A stretch of 61,595 nt of DNA from Bacteroidota bacterium (lineage in GTDB: Bacteria > Bacteroidota > Bacteroidia > Bacteroidales > UBA12481): positions 1 to 61,595 of the forward strand of contig JAYEFL010000330.1 in the NCBI GenBank assembly GCA_034658635.1. Reading direction: 5' to 3'. Shown one piece after another: positions 4,261 to 47,034 of this stretch (its first letter is position 1; each line of letters opens with the position of its first letter). The notes beneath the pieces are model-generated. The model was given only the letters and a program-made list of their open reading frames with translations. It was not told where the DNA came from and made no database searches. The position numbers were made by a program, and so were the translations under genes.

Positions 4261-6333
4261 TTATAATTCAAGTGCTTCAGCTACCAGCTCAGCAAGGTCA
4301 AAATTCTTAACTTCCTCTTCCTTGCTTGCATACTTCAGCCCATCAGTTAACATCACCATACAATAAGGACAAGCAGTCACAATAATTTCGGCTCCGGTTT
4401 CAAGAGCATCATTTGTTCGCTCCACAAAAACTTCCTTATCACCCTTTTCTGCCTCTTTAAACATCTGTCCACCTCCCGCACCACAGCACAAGGCAAAACT
4501 CTTACTGCGCTTCATTTCCACCAATTGGGCTCCTAAATTACTTAATACTTCTCTGGGGGCCTGGTATTCTCCATTTGCCCGGCCAAGGTAGCATGGATCA
4601 TGGTAAGTAATTCTTTTTCCTTTAAAGATTTCATGATTAACCTTCAATTTACCTGAATTAATGAGATCCTTCAGGAATTGGGAATGGTGAATTATGTCAA
4701 AATCACCTCCAAGATCCGGGTATTCATTTTTGAATGTATTAAAAGCATGCGGGTCGCATGTGATTATTTTCTGCACTCCGTACCCTTGAAGGATCTCAAT
4801 ATTCATCATTGCCTGCATCTGAAACAACATCTCATTACCTGCCCTTCGGGCTACATCACCGCTAGAGCTCTCCTCTGTTCCCAGAACTGCGTAATCAACA
4901 TTAAGATAATTAAGTAGCTTAATGAATGACCTTGTTACCTTCTTATACCTGTCATCAAATGCCCCGGCACTACCAATCCAAACCAGATACTCGGGCGATT
5001 CTCCCTTAGAATGAAGATCTGCGAATATCCTGGCTTCGTTATTTTCATCCCAGTTCATGCGATCTTCCTGTGAAAACTGCCATGGCGCACCGTTGTTTTC
5101 AATATTTGAGAACATGGTATTCAATTCAGCTGGTGCTCCAGCCTCCTCCATAACTATATACCTGCGAAGATCAACTATTAAAGATGGATGATTAATATTT
5201 ATCGGGCATTCCTGGGCACAAGCATTGCAAGTGGTACAGGCCCATATCTCCTCGGCTGTAAAGAAATCCTTAATCAGAGATTTTTTGTCTGCAAACTCTC
5301 TGCCCTCCTTAATCAATCCAGGTCCTTTTTCCTTCATTCTGGCCCTGAGGTCCATCATAAGTTTTCTGGGAGACAATTTTTTCCCGGTTAAATTAGCCGG
5401 ACAAACCTCAGTACAACGACCACACTGAGTACATGCCAAGGAATCAAAATAGTTTTTCCAATTTACATCTTCCACATCAAGCACTCCAAAACGCTGCACA
5501 TCTTCTTCATCTTCTGGCACCTCAGCACTCGGATCAAGCATTAGCTTCACCTCCTTTGTAACATTGTCCATATTAATAAGTTTCCCTAATGGCTCGAGGC
5601 GACTAAGAAAAACGTTTGGCACCGACATAAACACATGAAAGTGCTTAGAGTATGGGAGGTAGTTGGCAAAAAAGAATATAAATAAAATGTGGCTCCACCA
5701 ATTTATTTCATGTAAGGTATGAGCACCTGTCTTTGTCAAGCCACTGATCCAGCCAGCCACCACCTGACTAACAGGAAATACCCCAAGCATATCATCTCCG
5801 GATAATTGTTCATGAAGAATATAAAAGATATTCGTCCCCAACAGGCTTACCATCAAAAGAAGAATCAGCGAAAGAGCAAAATTAGCATCCACATGGGATT
5901 TATGTTTCATCTCAACCCCACCAAATCTTCTGATATTCAGAAAGATTCGACGAAAAAGGAAAATAATGATCAAAACCAGTATCAGGAAAGCAAAGACATC
6001 ACCTGAAGCAACTATAACATCATAAACAGGGCCAAGAAATCCCAAAACTCTTTCGGTTCCTGCCAGTCCATCAATAATCACCTCAACACTTCCTATCAGA
6101 ATCACACAAAAACCCCAAAAAACGAGAGCATGCATAAATCCAATTATGGGTTTACGCATAATCTTGGTTTGCCCTATGGCGACACGGAGAGTAATTATGA
6201 TCCGTTTCCCAATTTGCTTTATTGGAAATCCTTTTCTGGTTTGCTTAAATAAAGCAATCAATCTCCGTAGTGTATAAGAAAACACTCCAAGAGTAAGCAG
6301 TAGCGTACCGGCAAAAATGAATTGCTTGACCAT
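4261..6333 (-). CDS. Membrane-anchored Fe-S oxidoreductase (HdrD/GlpC-like with two CCG domains). Probable ETF-linked quinone reductase (EtfD-like).
   Basis: N-terminal ~230 aa with several TM helices. Two ferredoxin motifs CTQCGRCTEVCP and CTTCNACAQECP. CCG-type motifs HDPCYLGR and ALCCGAGGG. Sits directly downstream of etfB-etfA. Confidence 0.65.
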   Translation of the reverse strand: MVKQFIFAGTLLLTLGVFSYTLRRLIALFKQTRKGFPIKQIGKRIIITLRVAIGQTKIMRKPIIGFMHALVFWGFCVILIGSVEVIIDGLAGTERVLGFLGPVYDVIVASGDVFAFLILVLIIIFLFRRIFLNIRRFGGVEMKHKSHVDANFALSLILLLMVSLLGTNIFYILHEQLSGDDMLGVFPVSQVVAGWISGLTKTGAHTLHEINWWSHILFIFFFANYLPYSKHFHVFMSVPNVFLSRLEPLGKLINMDNVTKEVKLMLDPSAEVPEDEEDVQRFGVLDVEDVNWKNYFDSLACTQCGRCTEVCPANLTGKKLSPRKLMMDLRARMKEKGPGLIKEGREFADKKSLIKDFFTAEEIWACTTCNACAQECPININHPSLIVDLRRYIVMEEAGAPAELNTMFSNIENNGAPWQFSQEDRMNWDENNEARIFADLHSKGESPEYLVWIGSAGAFDDRYKKVTRSFIKLLNYLNVDYAVLGTEESSSGDVARRAGNEMLFQMQAMMNIEILQGYGVQKIITCDPHAFNTFKNEYPDLGGDFDIIHHSQFLKDLINSGKLKVNHEIFKGKRITYHDPCYLGRANGEYQAPREVLSNLGAQLVEMKRSKSFALCCGAGGGQMFKEAEKGDKEVFVERTNDALETGAEIIVTACPYCMVMLTDGLKYASKEEEVKNFDLAELVAEALEL

Positions 6334-38866: not shown

Positions 38867-39376
38867 TCAGGAATGGTCATCCACCCCGTAGATCATTTTC
38901 ATAGAATGTAGAACAGTTGGTAAGATTTCTGTGCAGTATTCACGAACAGCTTTAACGCTACCAGGCAATGCATAAATAAGCATCTGCCCTCTCACTCCTG
39001 CGATACTTCTGGAAATTAAAGCATTAGGCTTCTGCATTCCATATTTTACCCGGATCATTTCCATGATTCCGGGTATTTCTTTATCCAGTAACTCGCGTAT
39101 AACATCCGGAGTAAAGTCCTTAGGTCCGATGCCTGTACCTCCAGTTGTAAATAAGACGTGAATACTTTTGTCACTACTATCCTGCACAAGCATACTCAAT
39201 TGAACAGGATCATCGGGAATCAGGAGGTTTCTTATCTCGATATCAAGCTGTTTTTCACTAAAATAATCAGTACAAAGTCGACTTATTTCCGGGCCACTCA
39301 AATCTTCATACTCACCCTTACTGGCTCTGTCAGAAAGTGTAATGACTCCAATTTTCAAAATATCCGGCAAGCTCAT
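38867..39376 (-). CDS. mog: Molybdopterin adenylyltransferase MogA/MoaB family
   Basis: 169 aa. IGVITLSDRAS... and TTGGTGIGPKDFTPD are MoCF_biosynth-domain motifs. Confidence 0.8.
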   Translation of the reverse strand: MSLPDILKIGVITLSDRASKGEYEDLSGPEISRLCTDYFSEKQLDIEIRNLLIPDDPVQLSMLVQDSSDKSIHVLFTTGGTGIGPKDFTPDVIRELLDKEIPGIMEMIRVKYGMQKPNALISRSIAGVRGQMLIYALPGSVKAVREYCTEILPTVLHSMKMIYGVDDHS

Positions 39377-39822
39377 TTTTTTTCTTTACTTAGAAGAATA
39401 ATCTCTGCAAGCTGCATCCCCTTATCCACAGCTTTGCACATATCATAAACTGTCAGCAGGGCTACACTTACCGCAGTAAGGGCTTCCATCTCCACTCCTG
39501 TTTGTCCGATGCATTTTACTTCACTAATGATTTGTACACCATTTTCCTCCAGACTTGCCTCCACCCTGACTTTAGTCAATCGCAAAGTATGGCACAAGGG
39601 TATAAGATCAGCAGTTCTTTTTGCAGCTTGTACTCCGGCAATTTCAGCTACAGTCAGAACATCTCCTTTCTTCATATTATTATCTCTCACCAGGCTGACT
39701 GTTTCAGCATTCAAGCTGATAAAACCACTGGCTTTAGCAACCCTGGTCTGCTCAGGTTTGTGCCCTACATCAACCATACGGGCTCTGCCCTGATCATCGG
39801 TATGACTAAGTTTTTCTGACAT
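39373..39822 (-). CDS. moaC: Cyclic pyranopterin monophosphate synthase MoaC
   Basis: 149 aa with MVDVGHK, LIPLCH and EMEALTAVSVALLTVYDM MoaC blocks. Has a 4-nt overlap with mog. Confidence 0.9.
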   Translation of the reverse strand: MSEKLSHTDDQGRARMVDVGHKPEQTRVAKASGFISLNAETVSLVRDNNMKKGDVLTVAEIAGVQAAKRTADLIPLCHTLRLTKVRVEASLEENGVQIISEVKCIGQTGVEMEALTAVSVALLTVYDMCKAVDKGMQLAEIILLSKEKK

Positions 39823-39869
39823 ATCAAGAGATTAGTAGTACAAAGGTATTAAAATGTTAATGGGATAAT

Positions 39870-40670
39870 CTATCCACCAATCCCATAGAAGCTACCCTCA
39901 GGATTCAGTCCGCCTTGTTTAGGCTTTTTCTGTAATGCCTCCAGAATCGCTTTTTTCGGACCAAGTTCTCTGACCGAATAGCCACGGGTGCTGAACAGGC
40001 ATGGTTTTATCAGTCCATTGCTGGTTAATCTGAGACGGTTACAGCTGGAACAGTTTCCGCCTTCACCTCCTTCTACTGGCTGAAAATATCCCTTCTCGAG
40101 ATCCATCATGTGAATAAATCTCACCTCATAAGCATTTTTACCGGCAAAATCTCTAACCATACGTGCATCCGGTTCATCTGATGAACTGGTAATAACACAG
40201 TTTAGTTTAATGGGATTCAGTCCTGCTTTTTCTGCAGCTTTCAATCCGGCAAAAACCTCATTTATATCTCCTCCACGTGTAATCTCAGCGTACTTATCAG
40301 GATCCAAGGTATCCAGACTGACATTAACGCGGTGAAGTCCGGCATCTTTCAGATCCCGGGCATATTTTGTCAGGTACGTTGCATTGCTTGTCATGGCAAG
40401 GTCTTTGATCCCATTAATCCCTGAAATCATTGACACTAAATTCACGATACCCTTACGAACCAATGGTTCCCCTCCAGTTATCCTGACTTTATCTACTCCG
40501 AGATCAACAGCCACCCGAACCACTTCTACAATTTCATCAAAACTGAGAATATCTGTATGTGAAAGCGGAACTACTCCTTCTGCAGGCATGCAGTAAACGC
40601 AGCGGAGATTACATCTGTCAGTAACAGATATTCTGAGGTAATTAATTCTTCTGTTATATCTGTCGAACAT
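39870..40670 (-). CDS. moaA: GTP 3',8-cyclase MoaA (radical SAM), compact 266-aa form
   Basis: YLRISVTDRCNLRCVYC radical-SAM cluster, C-terminal auxiliary cluster CSSCNRLRLTSNGLIKPC, and a terminal IGG. Confidence 0.88.
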   Translation of the reverse strand: MFDRYNRRINYLRISVTDRCNLRCVYCMPAEGVVPLSHTDILSFDEIVEVVRVAVDLGVDKVRITGGEPLVRKGIVNLVSMISGINGIKDLAMTSNATYLTKYARDLKDAGLHRVNVSLDTLDPDKYAEITRGGDINEVFAGLKAAEKAGLNPIKLNCVITSSSDEPDARMVRDFAGKNAYEVRFIHMMDLEKGYFQPVEGGEGGNCSSCNRLRLTSNGLIKPCLFSTRGYSVRELGPKKAILEALQKKPKQGGLNPEGSFYGIGG

Positions 40671-41829
40671 TCACTAATTCTCCTTCATCAATTTGGGACT
40701 GACCAACTCTAAAATAAATAAAACCCTGGGCCTGGTTTAAAGCAAAGATGTGAGCTGAGCCGTGATAATCAAGTGGAATCACCCTCCCCTCCTCAGATAG
40801 TTTAACCGGTATCCATGACATCCGTTCGGTCTTTTTACGAATGAACTTCTTCCCAGCAGGCAGTTTCCATACTTGAGGCTTCCAATCATGCCCCATGCAT
40901 TTGAAAAGAAAAGGCTTAACCAGAATCTCAAATTGCACAAAAGCAGAAACAGGATTACCCGGGAGAGCAAATATGTATCTTTCTTTCCCAACTGCAAATG
41001 TAGTTGGTTTGCCGGGTTGAACAGCAATCCTCTGATATTTCAATTCCATGCCCAATCTTGTCAAAACAGAGGGTACAAAGTCAAACTCACCCATCGACAC
41101 TCCTCCCGACAGTATTAATAAATCTGTCGACTTCAAGGCTTTTGACAATTGTTCATAGGTTTTCTCCTCATCGTCAGGAGCTATCCCAAAATATACAGGA
41201 TCAAGTCCCAGCTTAATGAGCTGAATCATCATTTGAGAGGCATTGGAATTCCGTATTTGTGAAACTCCCGGTTTTTGGTCAGGCTCAACTAATTCCGTAC
41301 CTGTAGCGATAACCCCAACCCTAATTTGTTTGTATACAGGAACACTCACTACGCCGATAGTTGCCAGCAGAGGGATATGCCTTTCACTCAAAAGAGCTCC
41401 CTTTTCAAGGATAAGGTCTCCCTTATTAACATCTTCTCCGAGATAACATATATTGTTATGTGTTTTTTCTCCTGTGAATATCACTTTATTAGATTCCTTT
41501 AACTCTGTCTGCTCCACCATGATTACAGTATCAGCTCCTTTTGGTACAATTGCACCCGTCATTATCTGGGAACACTGCCCTTTTCCAACTTCTTGTTCAG
41601 GCTTCACTCCAGCAGGTATAGTTTCAATAATCCTTAGCTCAAGATGCAAATCAGCCTTCCTGCAAGCATAGCCATCCATAGCACTTTTGTCAAATGGCGG
41701 CATTGAAATATCTGTAAATAAGTCTTCTGACAATACTCTATCAACTGACTGTAAATAAGGCACTTTTTCTACACTTTGCAGATTTGCAGCATTCAAGGTA
41801 ATAGAAAGAGCTTCCTCAAATAGTATCAT
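40654..41829 (-). CDS. moeA: Molybdopterin molybdenumtransferase MoeA
   Basis: PPFDKSAMDGYA and ILSGGVSMGEFD motifs. The ATG at 41829 is preferred over the TTG at 41850. Has a 17-nt overlap with moaA. Confidence 0.85.
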   Translation of the reverse strand: MILFEEALSITLNAANLQSVEKVPYLQSVDRVLSEDLFTDISMPPFDKSAMDGYACRKADLHLELRIIETIPAGVKPEQEVGKGQCSQIMTGAIVPKGADTVIMVEQTELKESNKVIFTGEKTHNNICYLGEDVNKGDLILEKGALLSERHIPLLATIGVVSVPVYKQIRVGVIATGTELVEPDQKPGVSQIRNSNASQMMIQLIKLGLDPVYFGIAPDDEEKTYEQLSKALKSTDLLILSGGVSMGEFDFVPSVLTRLGMELKYQRIAVQPGKPTTFAVGKERYIFALPGNPVSAFVQFEILVKPFLFKCMGHDWKPQVWKLPAGKKFIRKKTERMSWIPVKLSEEGRVIPLDYHGSAHIFALNQAQGFIYFRVGQSQIDEGELVNVRQI

Positions 41830-41894
41830 ATCTAAAAAATTTGAATGCAAAGGTAGAGTTTTATTTGTGAAGATTTTTTCAAAAAACCTTCATG

Positions 41895-41935
41895 TTTTTT
41901 TCCATTTCCCTCCCTCTTTTGCATCTATATTAATA
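41895..41935 (+). promoter_or_regulatory. Conserved ~40-nt intergenic motif, copy B (TTTTTTTCCATT..CCCTCCC..CATCTATAT.AATA)
   Basis: Same three blocks as 37942-37980. Lies in the divergent moeA / Cys-rich small protein promoter region and is followed by the 10-bp palindrome GACTGCAGTC. Confidence 0.6.
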
Positions 41936-41981
41936 GACTGCAGTCAAAAACAATTAATTAACAATTTAAAAATTAGAAAAC

Positions 41982-42290
41982 ATGAAAATTAAACGCAAGT
42001 ATTTACTCTATTGCCTGGCATTTATGGTATTTTCATCATCCGGGTTAACAAAAATTTCAGCTTTTTCAGGTGGATCTATTGATTCAGACGAGAAAGACGC
42101 GAAGATCATGGTAGGTTACGTACCTACTACCTACAAAAAGGCTTCAGGTACTCGTGTTGAACACATTTACTTTGCCGGAAACCATTTTACCCGAACCGTG
42201 TGTGACTACGAAACCTTCCGATGTTGCAAGTCAACCGGGAATGAGATGGATGGATGTTCAGCACCTGTAAAATGTCCTGATAGTTTGTAA
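41982..42290 (+). CDS. Secreted Cys-rich small protein (paralog 1), unknown function
   Basis: 102 aa. Signal peptide MKIKRKYLLYCLAFMVFSSSGLTKISA, then a SGGS stretch. The C-terminal motif CC-x9-C-x5-C is shared with the 44084-44410 product. Confidence 0.55.
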   Translation: MKIKRKYLLYCLAFMVFSSSGLTKISAFSGGSIDSDEKDAKIMVGYVPTTYKKASGTRVEHIYFAGNHFTRTVCDYETFRCCKSTGNEMDGCSAPVKCPDSL

Positions 42291-42300
42291 TCTCGCTAAT

Positions 42301-42903
42301 ATGAATAAACAGGTACACTTGGTATTAATCGTTCTTTTTCTAATTTTGGCTAATCTGGTATTAGTCTTTCAATATCGAAATACGATTAACAAGAACCGCA
42401 TGAAGGCAGATCAAAAGAACATCAATCTGACAAAGACTTTGGCAGATGCTGAACTGACTAATCTGGCCTGGGCAACCTCGGTAAGCATTCCTCCGAGAAC
42501 AGTACCAATAGAATGTCTTGAGATTCTGCCATCTGAAGGAGCGCTTATTGTAAGATTGTCTGACAATCAATGCAGTAGCTGCATTGATCAGCTTTTATTT
42601 GAAATACGGAAGCATTTGGCTGACATTGGGCCTGACAACCTGATTGTTATGTATTCTTCAAAAAGAGATCATCAAATCAATCAAAGATTCAGACTACGCC
42701 TTTTAGACCCTGTTAAATTCATCAATGTACCGGAAAATATGGAAGTAACACCACTTGATCAGTTTCGTATCCCTTACCTTTTTCTGATTAATGCAAGTGG
42801 TGAAGTTCAGGCATCCTTTCTTCCATATCCGGCCACAGAGAAATTTACCGGGATATTCCTTAAACACATCGCAAATCAATTTCACAAAAGTTATGAAAAT
42901 TAA
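42301..42903 (+). CDS. Membrane-anchored thioredoxin-fold-like protein with a single CxxC (TlpA/redoxin-like)
   Basis: N-terminal TM helix (VHLVLIVLFLILANLVLVF). LIVRLSDNQCSSCIDQ (CxxC after a beta-strand-like segment) and a later IPYLFLINASGEV (cis-Pro-like region). Confidence 0.45.
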   Translation: MNKQVHLVLIVLFLILANLVLVFQYRNTINKNRMKADQKNINLTKTLADAELTNLAWATSVSIPPRTVPIECLEILPSEGALIVRLSDNQCSSCIDQLLFEIRKHLADIGPDNLIVMYSSKRDHQINQRFRLRLLDPVKFINVPENMEVTPLDQFRIPYLFLINASGEVQASFLPYPATEKFTGIFLKHIANQFHKSYEN

Positions 42904-44077
42904 ATCAATCTTAATGTTTGGGCTTATTGCCGGCTTGTTCTTTTCATGTCAGACAAAGACAGATACACCAATAGGACAAAACACCTTCAGAGCTGAATTT
43001 GTTGACAATATTAAACTCAGCGAATACTTCACGTCTCTTGAATATATATTTCTGGAAGAAAGTCCTGATGGCCTTTTCATGAACGCAGATAAGATTATTT
43101 TTTTTCAGAAACGGTGGTATATCCTCGACAGTGAACTGATGGCGATTCTTTGCTTTGAAGAAAACGGCAAATTTTTGTTCAGGATTCATTCAGTGGGCAG
43201 AGGTCCAGGTGAATATCAATTACTTACCGACATAATGATTCATGAAACGAACAAAGAGCTTTGGGCTCAATGCAGGAAGAGTACTAAAATCTTTGTCTAC
43301 AATCTGGATGGGCAACTGATCAGGGAAGAGTCCGTTGGCAGAGTGGGCATAGATTTCATCCAAATGAACGAATCAGATATCCTTGCATACGACGAGGAAA
43401 GGCACCTTTTTCGTAAGGATGATGCAATAAATAATGGCGTTTACCTCTTTGGTCACAGCTTCAGGCGAAAACATCAACTATTTGAGCTGCCATCAGGAAC
43501 AACATACTATTCTTTGAATAACAATAATAATTTCTCTTTGCACAAGGATAGTTGTTTTTTCTTATCACCTTCAGACAGCCTGATGTGCTTTCCTCCTGAC
43601 CTTAATCCAATTGTGGTTGGTGTTTTCGATTTTGGAACTTATCATCTTTCTGAGAAGCTTAAACATTTGCCAAACAAGGTCCAATATTTTTCTGACGTCA
43701 TTGACTCCGGAAAAGTTTTATGGAAAGAAAACCTTGTTGTAACATCTCAAGCTGTTTTTCTTCAACTTGGGCTCCAAAACACTTCCTGGTTTGGAGTCAT
43801 AGATCGCAAAAACTCAAGATTCAGAGTCACCCAGGGCCTTATTAATGATTTAGACTCAAGAGTTTTCACCTTTCCGTCATTCCGCAAATCACGCACTGAA
43901 GTTGTCGGATTTATTTCGGCTGACCTCCTTTTGGCCTATCAGGAGAGTATCTCAAAGATTTCGGATGAGGATAAAAAAACGGAAAACACAAAAGCACTGA
44001 TTGCTTTCATTGAAAAAGGCCTTGAAGGCTCTGGGAACGTACTAGTTATTTCAAAAATTAAAGAACAATTTAAATAA
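42893..44077 (+). CDS. Lipoprotein, probable 6-bladed beta-propeller (BF3164-like family)
   Basis: Lipobox LFFSCQ from ATG 42893. GRGPGEY motif and repeated hydrophobic-strand pattern, as I recall for Bacteroides 6-bladed propeller lipoproteins. Has an 11-nt overlap with the upstream gene. Confidence 0.5.
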   Translation: MKIKSILMFGLIAGLFFSCQTKTDTPIGQNTFRAEFVDNIKLSEYFTSLEYIFLEESPDGLFMNADKIIFFQKRWYILDSELMAILCFEENGKFLFRIHSVGRGPGEYQLLTDIMIHETNKELWAQCRKSTKIFVYNLDGQLIREESVGRVGIDFIQMNESDILAYDEERHLFRKDDAINNGVYLFGHSFRRKHQLFELPSGTTYYSLNNNNNFSLHKDSCFFLSPSDSLMCFPPDLNPIVVGVFDFGTYHLSEKLKHLPNKVQYFSDVIDSGKVLWKENLVVTSQAVFLQLGLQNTSWFGVIDRKNSRFRVTQGLINDLDSRVFTFPSFRKSRTEVVGFISADLLLAYQESISKISDEDKKTENTKALIAFIEKGLEGSGNVLVISKIKEQFK

Positions 44078-44083
44078 ATTAAC

Positions 44084-44410
44084 ATGAAAATTAAAAACCT
44101 TATCACCATTTTATCGCTGTCTGTTATATTCATCTTCAATGCTGCCTTTAGTCTGGCATCAGCAGAAGGAGGAGGAGACAATTCACACACAGAAAGCACA
44201 ACTGATTCACACTGGCTAAAAAATCATCGTAGAACCCAAAAAAAGGTGAAAGACAGTATCACCGTGGGACTTGAAGGTGATGTTAATACTTTGGGTATAG
44301 GATTCTTTAGAGTGAATACAAACATCAAATGGGTCTTTGTTCAATGCTGTAAGTATACAGTAGAGTCTGACTATTGGTGTAACGCAGCACTGCAGGATAA
44401 GCGGTGTTAA
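44084..44410 (+). CDS. Secreted Cys-rich small protein (paralog 2), unknown function
   Basis: 108 aa. Signal peptide ending FSLASA, then EGGGD. The C-terminal motif is CCKYTVESDYWCNAALQDKRC (CC-x9-C-x8-C). Confidence 0.55.
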   Translation: MKIKNLITILSLSVIFIFNAAFSLASAEGGGDNSHTESTTDSHWLKNHRRTQKKVKDSITVGLEGDVNTLGIGFFRVNTNIKWVFVQCCKYTVESDYWCNAALQDKRC

Positions 44411-45336
44411 AAAACAGGTAAACAATATGGGGGGAGCGAAGAGCTCTCCCCATCCGGGTTACCTTGAATCTTAATCCCAAGACCAATTTCACCATCGTGA
44501 GTACCATCCAGACTTTTGACCAGAAAAGCCCCAAAAAGTCCTGATTCCGTTTTAAAAACATACACGTTATCAATGATCAGTTCCTTAGCTTTTCGCTTTG
44601 CATCCTCATCAGAGTATAAAGGAATAATCAGACCATCATGAAAAATATTCTCAAATTGTTCAGGTGTTATCTCTGTTTTAATGAATCTCGTGGTGTTTCT
44701 TGTTGACCAGTTTTCAGGAGAAGCATCTCCTGAAAAGATCCCGGATTGGATATTTGCACCAGGTGAAGTAACACATGCCTGGTCATCGTCACTATGGTAA
44801 TAAATCAGATCTACAGTTTCCTGGTTTTGGAAAGCTCCCTCAAGATCATACCTTAAAGCACCGGATAAACTTAAAAAGCCAGGAATAAACACATTGTTCT
44901 GAGCTCCCAGCCTAATGTCATCAAAATACTTGACGGGACCATAAATAGAATTTGGGTCCTTACTCAGCACGATACTTGCCGATGCCTCATTACCCTTTTC
45001 ATCAATCAAAGTAAACTTCCATAATTCTTCCTCCGAGAAGCTTTTCATTAGATTAAAGCTGTACTCACCCCTGTCAATAATATCAAGATGATACGACTGT
45101 AGTAGTTGCTCACTGGCATAAACATCCAGTGTCCTCAACTTATCAGTCTCATTCCATTCTAAAACAACTCCAATTTTAATCGTATCACCTACCATCAGCA
45201 TAGTATCCTGAGATAGGAAACCTTCTCCTTCCACAAAACTAATATTTGGAGGGCCCATATCCTTCTGGCATGAAATAAAGACTGAAAAAGCAATAAGGAT
45301 ATATACAAACGAGTTTAAAATATTGATACTCTTCAT
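44407..45336 (-). CDS. Lipoprotein of unknown function
   Basis: 309 aa with lipobox VFISCQ. ATGA overlap with the upstream membrane-protein gene. Its stop codon overlaps the convergent 44084-44410 stop. Confidence 0.55.
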   Translation of the reverse strand: MKSINILNSFVYILIAFSVFISCQKDMGPPNISFVEGEGFLSQDTMLMVGDTIKIGVVLEWNETDKLRTLDVYASEQLLQSYHLDIIDRGEYSFNLMKSFSEEELWKFTLIDEKGNEASASIVLSKDPNSIYGPVKYFDDIRLGAQNNVFIPGFLSLSGALRYDLEGAFQNQETVDLIYYHSDDDQACVTSPGANIQSGIFSGDASPENWSTRNTTRFIKTEITPEQFENIFHDGLIIPLYSDEDAKRKAKELIIDNVYVFKTESGLFGAFLVKSLDGTHDGEIGLGIKIQGNPDGESSSLPPYCLPVF

Positions 45337-45902
45337 TTTCGATATTTCTTAATAATACTAAATAGGCCGGCAGTGAATCCCGATCCAATCATTCCAAATA
45401 GAAAAAAGCCAGCAACAGGAGCTAAGGGAGTACCATATTTCACCGCTGCCGGATAAACAATTCCTGTTATAGCCATCAGTAAAATTCTAAATAATGGAAC
45501 AGCCATATAAGAAAGCCCACCAACAAGCGCCAGAATCCAGGCCTTCCTCTTATTTTCTGGCAGCTTGGAATAAACCAGATCTAATATGAATACAGGCAGC
45601 AAATAACCCATTGCTGAAATAGGATTCTTGAAACCGATAAAAGGTAGAAAGATCATTAATCCGATTCCCAATGCCAGGAAGACAGAAGAAAACTTGACCT
45701 TTGACACCATCCGTCCTGCAAGTAAGAGAGCCATAAAATCCAATCCATGATGCCCCGGAATACTAATCCCTATCCTGAATTTAGCATGTAAGAATATGGC
45801 AAAGGCCCCTGTAAGAAACAGCAAAACTGCTTCAATAACGGTGGCTGATAAATCAGGAGCTAAGCTCCTTGAGGTAGAGTTTATCTGCTGTTTTCCAATC
45901 AT
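45333..45902 (-). CDS. Polytopic membrane protein (about 5-6 TM), unknown function
   Basis: Hydrophobic helices throughout (for example VIEAVLLFLTGAFAIFL and VAGFFLFGMIGSGFTAGLF). The ATG at 45902 is the first ATG. The ORF overlaps the upstream gene by about 50 nt. Confidence 0.5.
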   Translation of the reverse strand: MIGKQQINSTSRSLAPDLSATVIEAVLLFLTGAFAIFLHAKFRIGISIPGHHGLDFMALLLAGRMVSKVKFSSVFLALGIGLMIFLPFIGFKNPISAMGYLLPVFILDLVYSKLPENKRKAWILALVGGLSYMAVPLFRILLMAITGIVYPAAVKYGTPLAPVAGFFLFGMIGSGFTAGLFSIIKKYRK

Positions 45903-46593
45903 TTCCTGATCTTTTAAGGTTTTTCTCAGCAATAATATATGTCTTGCTATTTATTAGAACCGCTCTGATCCAATCTGTTAAATCAATCATCAAAGCAGCA
46001 TCAAGAATCTTCCCATCTCTGGTCATAACTGCGTCAACCTGAGTTCCTTTTAGAAGTTGCTCAACAGTCATTGAACCAACCAGATCCCGAAGTTGCTTAC
46101 CAGGCTGCCATATAAAACGTCCGTCATTTCCAAAATTCCTTAGTCCGATAGCAGCGAGGGCCCCAATAATTCCATCAAAGGTTCCTGTTAATCCTTCAAG
46201 CTGAATACCATTTCTATCAGCTATATCACGGGCTTCTTTCTGGGTCAGGACTTCGCACTTGGCTCTGCGCCCCCATTCTTCAACTTCCAAAGGCACCTTT
46301 CCTGCTTCAACTATGCACAAACCAACATCGCTACCCGGAATAGCCTCCCTCAACATGAAACTCCGACAAAACTCCCAAAGTTTTTCTTTATTATGAGCTT
46401 CGATCTCAAGACAATTGGAACTGTTTTGTGAAGTATAGGGTATTAGTTCATGAACGTAAAGTTGATGCCGGGTAATACCCATAACCTTTCCATAGCCGGC
46501 AAGCATTAGTTCAGAACCCATTTGTCTGGCTCTGAAACCAGTACCACGACTTTCTTTAGAGTCAGTATCGTCAACAGAAACAAATACACGCAT
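45853..46593 (-). CDS. Stand-alone protein resembling the N-terminal kinase (TCKD) domain of archaeal tRNA-agmatidine synthetase TiaS
   Basis: MRVFVSVDDTDS... (the TiaS-like xGIDDTDS start), an IPYTS... segment and GIIGALAAIG. These parallel TiaS blocks as I remember them. No OB-fold or Zn-ribbon follows. Confidence 0.45.
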   Translation of the reverse strand: MRVFVSVDDTDSKESRGTGFRARQMGSELMLAGYGKVMGITRHQLYVHELIPYTSQNSSNCLEIEAHNKEKLWEFCRSFMLREAIPGSDVGLCIVEAGKVPLEVEEWGRRAKCEVLTQKEARDIADRNGIQLEGLTGTFDGIIGALAAIGLRNFGNDGRFIWQPGKQLRDLVGSMTVEQLLKGTQVDAVMTRDGKILDAALMIDLTDWIRAVLINSKTYIIAEKNLKRSGNDWKTADKLYLKELSS

Positions 46594-46635
46594 AGCTCGC
46601 AAAAATAAAATCTTCAATAAATGAAGTACATGATT

Positions 46636-47034
46636 TTACTCAGTTCCCGGATTATCTTTATTATTCAATTTGTTAAAAAACTGACGGGTTATCCGATGAA
46701 TGGCCTGATCAAACTGAGAGTGCAATTCCTCAAAAGCGGCCAGAAGCTCTTTCCCGTCTTCCGTCAACTGTGATAATCCGCCATCTTTTCCACCCCTGGT
46801 AGAGTCAATCAAGCTAAGTCCAAGAAATTCTTCAGCTTCTTTAATGTCCCCCCAGGCTTTTCTATAACTAAGCCCTTTCTTTAATGCAGCCTTTTTCAAG
46901 GATCCATGCAAACCAATTTCCTTAAGGAGTTCGATCAGCTGATCATCCACTTTGCCATCACTTATCTGACTTTTCAGCCACACTTGATAATCAAGGAAAA
47001 TGTCAAAATATTTCGATCCTTTTGGTCCTGCCAT
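46636..47034 (-). CDS. ModE N-terminal-domain-like winged-HTH regulator (no Mop/TOBE domains)
   Basis: GSLKKAALKKGLSYRKAWGDIKEAEEFLGLSLIDSTRGGKDGGLSQLTEDGKELL closely follows the ModE/LysR-like HTH pattern (GS..AA..LG.SYR.AW......LG..L......GG..GG...LT..G..LL). Confidence 0.7.
   Translation of the reverse strand: MAGPKGSKYFDIFLDYQVWLKSQISDGKVDDQLIELLKEIGLHGSLKKAALKKGLSYRKAWGDIKEAEEFLGLSLIDSTRGGKDGGLSQLTEDGKELLAAFEELHSQFDQAIHRITRQFFNKLNNKDNPGTE

Follow-up and report, generated by a model that had tools for sequence, protein, structure and literature searches.

What is the role of four tightly packed genes, two of which encode small, cysteine-rich proteins with export signals, while the two between them encode a thioredoxin-like protein and a beta-propeller lipoprotein? 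This group, the module, occupies positions 41982-44410 of the window, a 61,595-nt stretch of DNA (positions 1 to 61,595, forward strand, of contig JAYEFL010000330.1) from a Bacteroidota bacterium (assembly GCA_034658635.1; Bacteroidales, UBA12481). A sequence-only reading had taken the module for a dedicated production and oxidative-folding system for disulfide-rich exported peptides of a bacteriocin-, signal- or toxin-like kind. The observations behind this proposal were confirmed in part and were largely correct, and its interpretation was supported in part. The module appears to be the core representative of a multi-copy family of cassettes that combine genes for an exported Cys-rich peptide, a DUF5128 propeller and a thioredoxin-like protein. 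We give an even chance to the reading that the thioredoxin-like protein handles the thiol-disulfides of the two small proteins in the periplasm, with the propeller as a peptide-binding partner, in a manner akin to a split NHLRC2/SOQ1.

Layout and conservation of the module

The four genes are designated A to D:

Gene A, 41982-42290, + strand: predicted exported small protein of 102 aa with a four-Cys C-terminal motif
Gene B, 42301-42903, + strand: 200-aa membrane-anchored protein with a predicted TlpA/ResA-like thioredoxin fold
Gene C, 42893-44077, + strand: predicted DUF5128 NHL-type six-bladed propeller lipoprotein, 394 aa from its MKIK start
Gene D, 44084-44410, + strand: predicted exported small protein of 108 aa with a four-Cys C-terminal motif

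Inspection of the open reading frames (ORFs) bore out four same-strand genes at these coordinates, with a 10-nt gap between A and B, an 11-nt overlap of B with C, and a 6-nt gap between C and D; the gene 3′ of D is convergent and overlaps the D stop. We infer that A-D form a conserved, tightly packed operon. The presence of signal peptides, a lipobox and a membrane anchor predicts that all four products act outside the cytoplasm. Pairwise ratios of nonsynonymous to synonymous substitution (dN/dS) were 0.10-0.16 for B and C, 0.15-0.49 for A, and 0.16-0.45 for D, values that are rough because dS is close to saturation. By these ratios B and C evolve more slowly than the peptides, and all four genes appear to be real and under purifying selection. 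Three of the genes had been described as opening with an identical 12-nt sequence. The 12-mer ATGAAAATTAAA does open A, C and D, which account for three of only 8 occurrences in the 4.5-Mb genome, but orthologues use other codons. It was accordingly rejected as a functional element, and is put down to chance agreement, at this locus, between A-rich signal-peptide starts.

Orthologues of B were traced down to 40% identity, and every sufficiently long contig that carried one showed the same order of A, B, DUF5128 and D. Gene A was present in exactly one copy in 25 of the 29 genomes of the GTDB family, representing 3 of its 4 genera. D was present in 23/29 genomes, all from those three genera, and in 20 of the 25 A-bearing genomes a single contig carries both genes, separated by about 2 kb. 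Conservation of the gene linkage and of the Cys pattern in other genomes, which the sequence-only reading had made a test of its proposal, was therefore borne out, and the module is to all appearances a single-copy, syntenic, vertically inherited core unit of the family.

The wider cassette family

About 30 DUF5128 propeller genes and 8 B-family genes were found in this genome. All 8 of the latter adjoin a DUF5128 propeller, and most of these pairs adjoin a 79-124-aa signal-peptide ORF with 5-9 Cys. A search with a narrow B alignment recovered 2 related loci only. The 20 B-family loci collected from relatives had a propeller adjacent in 19 cases, and a Cys-rich signal-peptide ORF as well in 17. 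Phylogenetic trees placed the module B proteins in one clade (100/99), and the module propellers likewise in one clade (100 in the Shimodaira-Hasegawa-like approximate likelihood ratio test). The thioredoxin and propeller trees gave largely the same cassette groups, each with its own peptide type. The B family was present in 25/25 family genomes sampled and was nearly absent in 16 other families of the order. DUF5128 is patchy over the order (7/61 genomes); propeller-thioredoxin pairs were found in three other families of the order, and one locus there carries the full trio.

A ninth cassette of this genome, C417 (3560-6572, - strand), encodes a DUF5128 propeller of 462 aa, a DsbA-like CDPC protein, and a 107-aa peptide that has 5 Cys and a TIGR04149-like leader (…LLNLKGG). 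The single VKOR match in the genome lies directly upstream of the CDPC protein in the same long open frame, and the two look fused. In peptides of other cassettes (C105:5718-5990 and C2:3612-3887, and loci L024-L041 of relatives), the sequence AEGGGG often directly follows the signal peptide, and a short tail, either Pro-rich or acidic (PPPEE, NPE, PIE, PPSPN), is frequent at the C-terminus. These patterns may represent a common processing or recognition feature.

The small proteins A and D

Both small proteins begin with a basic n-region and a hydrophobic core. Sec cleavage is predicted after ISA27 in A, before F28, and after ASA27 in D, before E28, leaving mature parts of ~75 and ~81 aa, respectively; the signal-like N-termini ending in ISA and ASA that had been described were thus borne out. 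The C-terminal motif of A is CC-x9-C-x5-C (C81, C82, C92, C98) and that of D is CC-x9-C-x8-C (C88, C89, C99, and C108, the last residue); their sequences are RCCKSTGNEMDGCSAPVKC and QCCKYTVESDYWCNAALQDKRC, respectively. The A motif was kept in 67/67 clusters of the A-type family at 90% identity, and the D motif in 40/44 clusters of the D-type family, so that the Cys patterns noted earlier are conserved well beyond chance. D also contains a conserved Trp, W44. No Pfam domain and no family name was found for A-type or D-type proteins, and their named sources were Bacteroidales metagenome-assembled genomes only. An exhaustive search of 1.84 billion representatives with the A profile yielded 17 A-type clusters at 50% identity and no other convincing match; a weak match to the 1358-aa protein P0133 was dismissed as spurious, since this is a Calx-beta repeat protein. 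By these searches A and D constitute two new, unnamed protein families. The suggestion that they lack the NVEALA motif and may be new held up, as neither matched PF14055 nor any Pfam family at E<=1; a genome-wide NVEALA search gave no match, and its positive control likewise gave none.

The claim that A and D are clearly related was not upheld. In a BLASTP comparison the signal peptides alone aligned (E 0.03). Shallow profiles hinted at paralogy, with 74-83% probability over the CC-x9-C stretch, but hhalign with deep alignments of the mature parts gave 3.6% probability, and D-type proteins were absent among the A-profile matches in the 1.84 billion representatives. The deep mature-only profiles and the exhaustive search ruled paralogy out as a working assignment. 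The common traits of A and D appear to be limited to architecture and the CC-x9-C spacing; paralogy is not demonstrable.

The AlphaFold2 model of A consists of a long beta-hairpin (46-64 and 67-84) followed by a Cys-rich tail, with a predicted local distance difference test score (pLDDT) of 85-93 over the mature part. What had been described as a 45-50-aa linker in A is instead a conserved and confidently modelled beta-hairpin. A Foldseek search with the A model returned no structure with E<0.6. The Gly runs that had been noted after the hydrophobic segments, SGGS in A and EGGGD in D, are present in these sequences, but are missing in the orthologues. One genus has an additional D-type paralogue (…IRCCNPTHLSHSWCNHDLDDERC) between A and B, at L036 (G005:C13) 5618-5941, which indicates that D-type genes can duplicate within the module.

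The thioredoxin-like protein B

B was modelled with a transmembrane helix at ~5-24, a stalk helix to ~55, and a thioredoxin domain at ~75-200 (AlphaFold2 pLDDT 81), consistent with the single N-terminal hydrophobic helix and single CSSC motif seen earlier. The motif occupies residues 91-94 (nt 42571-42582); in the model, strand 81-87 precedes C91-S-S-C94, which opens helix 92-109, and the putative cis-Pro, P158, is invariant in orthologues. The top 50 Foldseek matches in the PDB were all thioredoxin-superfamily chains, mostly ResA, TlpA, DsbE and DipZ, with the thioredoxin domain of NHLRC2 (6gc1) at rank 8, and the best full-length matches included TlpA in mixed disulfide with CoxB and ScoI. 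The thioredoxin-like assignment, which would have fallen had B failed to model as this fold, was upheld, and by its model B is a TlpA/ResA-like thioredoxin-fold protein.

Profile evidence pointed in the same direction at greater distance. A B-family profile built from 14 relatives reached ResA in the PDB at E 0.01, and a within-genome B hidden Markov model reached canonical WCxPC TlpA-like proteins. B itself had no Pfam match at E<=1 and no NCBIfam match, with the Redoxin, AhpC-TSA and Thioredoxin_8 models included, and just 2 of the 14 relatives reached Redoxin at E 0.03. In the B-family alignment (14 paralogues and orthologues) C91 and C94 were the sole invariant columns. Three B paralogues carry lipoboxes, which indicates that the family acts outside the cytoplasm. 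At the nucleotide level, a perfect 10-bp palindrome, ATCAATGCAG/CTGCATTGAT (42566-42588), lies in terminator-like form exactly over the NQCSSCIDQ codons. Synonymous sites in orthologues do not keep this hairpin, and it is probably due to chance.

The propeller lipoprotein C

C matched PF17170 (DUF5128) at 1.3e-28 (100.6 bits against a cut-off of 22.9), over model positions 19-316 of 321, and DUF4934 at threshold. Matches to solved NHL repeats included the NHL region of Thin (E 2.4e-7), TRIM2/TRIM3 (E 3e-5 to 5e-5), TRIM71 and 4raa, the E values of the NHL set ranging from 2e-7 to 5e-5. The lipobox is FFSC19, and 42 of the 46 propellers aligned have Cys at that position. An invariant G-x-G-P-G-E-Y, here GRGPGEY, lies at residues 102-108 (nt 43196-43216). 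The comparison that had been drawn for this protein, to a BF3164-like six-bladed propeller lipoprotein, was vindicated by the lipobox and the DUF5128 match, and C is by homology an NHL-type DUF5128 six-bladed propeller lipoprotein. The lipobox Cys is the sole Cys conserved across DUF5128 propellers as a whole; in the module clade C87 is nearly invariant (11/12), and no Cys pair is conserved. DUF5128 genes were also found in Bacteroides thetaiotaomicron by a control search. Some lone DUF5128 genes of this genome form tandem propeller arrays, and C269 has a 2728-aa open frame with DUF5128-like repeats.

Proposed handling of thiol-disulfides

In the proposed mechanism, A and D would be exported via Sec and cleaved after ISA and ASA, and the four Cys at the C-terminus of each would form a knot, enough for two disulfides. 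The CSSC of B would exchange disulfides with these knots, forming or isomerising them, where both the substrate and the direction of exchange are presumed. C might bind the peptides as a scaffold, holdase or receptor, and B and C might together act as a split version of the fused thioredoxin-NHL proteins NHLRC2 and SOQ1, roles suggested by linkage and co-diversification only. Since the peptides behave as core genes do, a part in the envelope or in physiology looks likelier for them than use as a strain-specific weapon.

Several observations weigh against this mechanism. A fifth Cys of A, C74, is unconserved among relatives and unpaired, and A is modelled as an isolated long hairpin without a structural match. 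Of the DUF5128 propeller genes of this genome, seen as 32 ORFs (e.g. C206, C135, C338, C334, C234), about three quarters stand beside neither a thioredoxin-like gene nor one for a Cys-rich peptide, so that the propeller does not strictly need either. TlpA/ResA-like proteins are usually reductases. The genome encodes DsbD and no DsbB, and no VKOR was found outside the C417 cassette. By this distribution and its reductase-type fold, B could act in the reductive direction. The replacement of the TlpA-like protein by a VKOR/DsbA-type partner in C417 hints at disulfide formation; oxidative folding is one possible chemistry of B.

Chromosomal setting

On its upstream side the module is divergent from molybdenum cofactor (Moco) genes, and a further candidate molybdenum-related gene lies downstream:

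Mog/moaB-moaC-moaA-moeA operon, 38867-41850, - strand: flanks the module
Intergenic region common to moeA and A, 41851..41981, + strand: contains the blocks TTTTCCAT and GCATCTATA, conserved in an alignment of 9 orthologous regions from two genera
ModE-N-terminal-like regulator, 46636-47034, - strand: 131 aa, match to TIGR00637 at 9e-22

The module was divergent from moeA-moaA in 11/11 loci checked, in three genera and with MoeA identity down to 50%; the opposite flank varies between genera. In this genus, the ModE-N-like regulator lies 2 kb downstream of the module. A functional tie between the module and molybdenum may exist. The intergenic region is the presumed promoter/operator of the A-D operon, and includes an imperfect palindrome, TGCA-TCTAT-ATTA-ATAGA-C-TGCA (41920-41943). 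Orthologues within this genus all carry it in near-identical form, and another genus retains parts of it (CATCTATA, TTTTCCAT); the palindrome may be an operator or promoter element that serves both the module and the Moco operon. An Rfam search of 41500-44800 matched no family, and hence no Moco riboswitch. A scan for sigma-70 promoters gave fewer matches than shuffled sequence, and is uninformative for Bacteroidota.

Two further features were observed in these flanks. A 12-nt inverted repeat with a 1-nt loop (TGAAGATTTTTT/AAAAAACCTTCA, 41868-41892) lies directly upstream of the moeA start. The protein encoded at 45853-46617 (- strand) is 254 aa long and weakly resembles both the TiaS TCKD domain and methanogenesis marker protein 11 (TIGR03280, 1e-13); it is unusual for Bacteroidales, and is conserved beside the module within this genus.

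Alternative explanations

The reductive side of the redox context and the Moco neighbourhood would both be accommodated if B acted as TlpA does toward ScoI and CoxB, keeping the Cys of A and D reduced to bind a metal or thiometallate, with the module tied to Mo/W handling. The TlpA mixed disulfides with CoxB and ScoI among the full-length matches of the B model, a DsbD reductive pathway without DsbB, the constant moeA-moaA flank beside a changing opposite one, the ModE-N-like regulator, and the conserved intergenic palindrome all favour such a metallochaperone role. Many paralogous cassettes, however, are not beside Mo genes, and synteny in one family can last between genes that are functionally unconnected; A and D matched no metal-binding family, no Moco riboswitch was found, and the C417 cassette has an oxidising VKOR-DsbA-type partner. 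On balance the metallochaperone role is unlikely. A comparably low probability is given to A and D being a two-peptide bacteriocin or toxin, i.e. disulfide-stabilised antimicrobials with B as their oxidase and C as an immunity or receptor-decoy protein. Disulfide bacteriocins such as the bacteroidetocins and sublancin come with dedicated thiol oxidoreductases, the cassette family is multi-copy with highly diverse peptides, and peptide evolution outpaces that of B and C. The module itself is single-copy and vertically inherited, holds the same chromosomal place in three genera, and is under purifying selection, with which the bacteriocin- or toxin-like interpretation offered earlier fits poorly; no outer-membrane exporter, C39 peptidase or mobility gene lies nearby, and Sec signal peptides deliver to the periplasm only. 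The earlier suggestion that the Gly runs are double-glycine leader sites, at which A and D would be cut as precursors of class II bacteriocins or of ribosomally synthesised and post-translationally modified peptides, drew on SGGS and EGGGD after the hydrophobic segment, and the C417 cassette does carry a TIGR04149-like LKGG leader. The absence of the runs from orthologues removes this reading; in addition, the basic n-region, hydrophobic core and AxA site of the N-termini are typical of Sec, no C39/ABC transporter is found in the neighbourhood (no transporter gene of any kind lies within 5 kb of the module), and no NCBIfam precursor family matched, so that it retains next to no credibility.

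Two other explanations shift the emphasis to the propeller. C might be a peptide-modifying enzyme, like the NHL-type peptidyl-alpha-hydroxyglycine lyase, and B might merely prepare or protect Cys residues. C shares the NHL-type propeller with that enzyme, but matched no catalytic family, only DUF5128, DUF4934 and non-enzymatic TRIM NHL repeats, and no conserved metal-ligand set was identified, which makes an enzymatic C improbable. Alternatively, B might be dedicated to the propeller itself, as DsbL/DsbI are to the arylsulfotransferase propeller of Escherichia coli, with A and D as unrelated accessories. Thioredoxin and propeller are indeed the tightest-linked pair, and some loci have no peptide. 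This possibility is nevertheless very remote: the lipid-anchor Cys aside, no Cys is conserved over DUF5128 propellers, the module clade adds C87 alone, and A and D have four essentially invariant Cys. It was rejected as the principal explanation because the propeller has no conserved Cys pair. The preferred reading therefore remains thiol-disulfide handling of A and D by B, with C as peptide-binding partner. A much more speculative extension, which is a long shot, is that B and C form a two-protein periplasmic redox machine, the split counterpart of NHLRC2/SOQ1, whose clients are a large, hypervariable and unrecognised class of Sec-exported Cys-rich mini-proteins. A and D would then act jointly, possibly disulfide-linked via their vicinal CC, and would be co-regulated with the divergent Moco operon through the palindrome, with a tie to Mo/W or sulfide physiology in anaerobic Bacteroidales.

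Comparison with known systems

B shares its fold, N-terminal membrane anchor, CxxC and cis-Pro with TlpA, ResA and CcmG (DsbE). It differs from them in that it has no Trp before the first Cys and no Redoxin/AhpC-TSA match, and in that the two residues inside CxxC vary widely from paralogue to paralogue; B is also linked to propeller and peptide genes rather than to cytochrome c or CuA maturation genes. Bacteroidales neighbourhoods in which NVEALA (PF14055), DUF5128, TolB_like and TlpA-like proteins occur together, known from database annotation only, have the same propeller family beside a small exported protein and a thioredoxin-like protein. A and D lack the NVEALA motif and any PF14055 match, and belong to two separate families. 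No paper on NVEALA-DUF5128-TlpA neighbourhoods was found in the literature.

Bacteroidetocin and sublancin (BdbB) loci encode a disulfide bacteriocin with its own oxidoreductase, a double-glycine leader and a C39-ABC exporter. The module resembles them in that a small Cys-containing exported peptide adjoins its own thiol-disulfide enzyme, but its peptides carry Sec signals, a propeller lipoprotein is encoded with them, an exporter is missing, and the module behaves as a single-copy core gene set. In the assT-dsbL-dsbI locus of uropathogenic E. coli, a beta-propeller enzyme has its own Dsb pair. There too a dedicated thioredoxin-fold protein is encoded beside a periplasmic six-bladed propeller, whereas C has no conserved disulfide pair, no DsbI/DsbB partner is present, and small four-Cys proteins are added. 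A literature search found no paper describing a trio of Cys-rich peptide, propeller and thioredoxin. The pairing of a small Cys-containing peptide with a dedicated oxidoreductase is thus a known theme; the two peptide families, and an NHL propeller lipoprotein as the constant third partner, are new to it.

Few uncharacterised lipoprotein families of Bacteroidota have expanded as much as the DUF5128 propellers. A defined subset of them has diversified together with a thioredoxin-like protein and a Cys-rich exported peptide of its own, which provides the first testable functional context for the family. The module is the cleanest entry point to it, being single-copy and vertically inherited, with two well-conserved peptide families of 75-81 mature residues and a predicted two-disulfide motif. 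It bears on how anaerobic Bacteroidales without DsbB handle periplasmic disulfides, and on the role of thioredoxin-NHL proteins, NHLRC2 and SOQ1 among them, about whose substrates little is known.

In NHLRC2 (animals and some bacteria) and SOQ1 (plant thylakoid lumen), a TlpA/DipZ-like thioredoxin domain and a six-bladed NHL propeller are fused. The thioredoxin domain of NHLRC2 has been assigned to the TlpA-like/Trx8 group, and no conserved neighbours were found for its bacterial homologues (PMC6107167). The module pairs the same two folds, again in an extracytoplasmic or lumenal location, as suggested by the match of B to 6gc1 and the NHL repeats that C shares. Unlike the fused proteins, it encodes them in two overlapping genes, as a membrane-anchored thioredoxin and a lipoprotein propeller, and lacks their C-terminal beta-stranded domain. 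The active-site motif of B is CSSC, with a variable CxxC among relatives, compared with CC(I/V)NC in NHLRC2/SOQ1, and B and C, unlike the bacterial NHLRC2 homologues, are linked to genes for small Cys-rich exported proteins. By this comparison the module would be an analogue, and not a member, of the NHLRC2/SOQ1 group.

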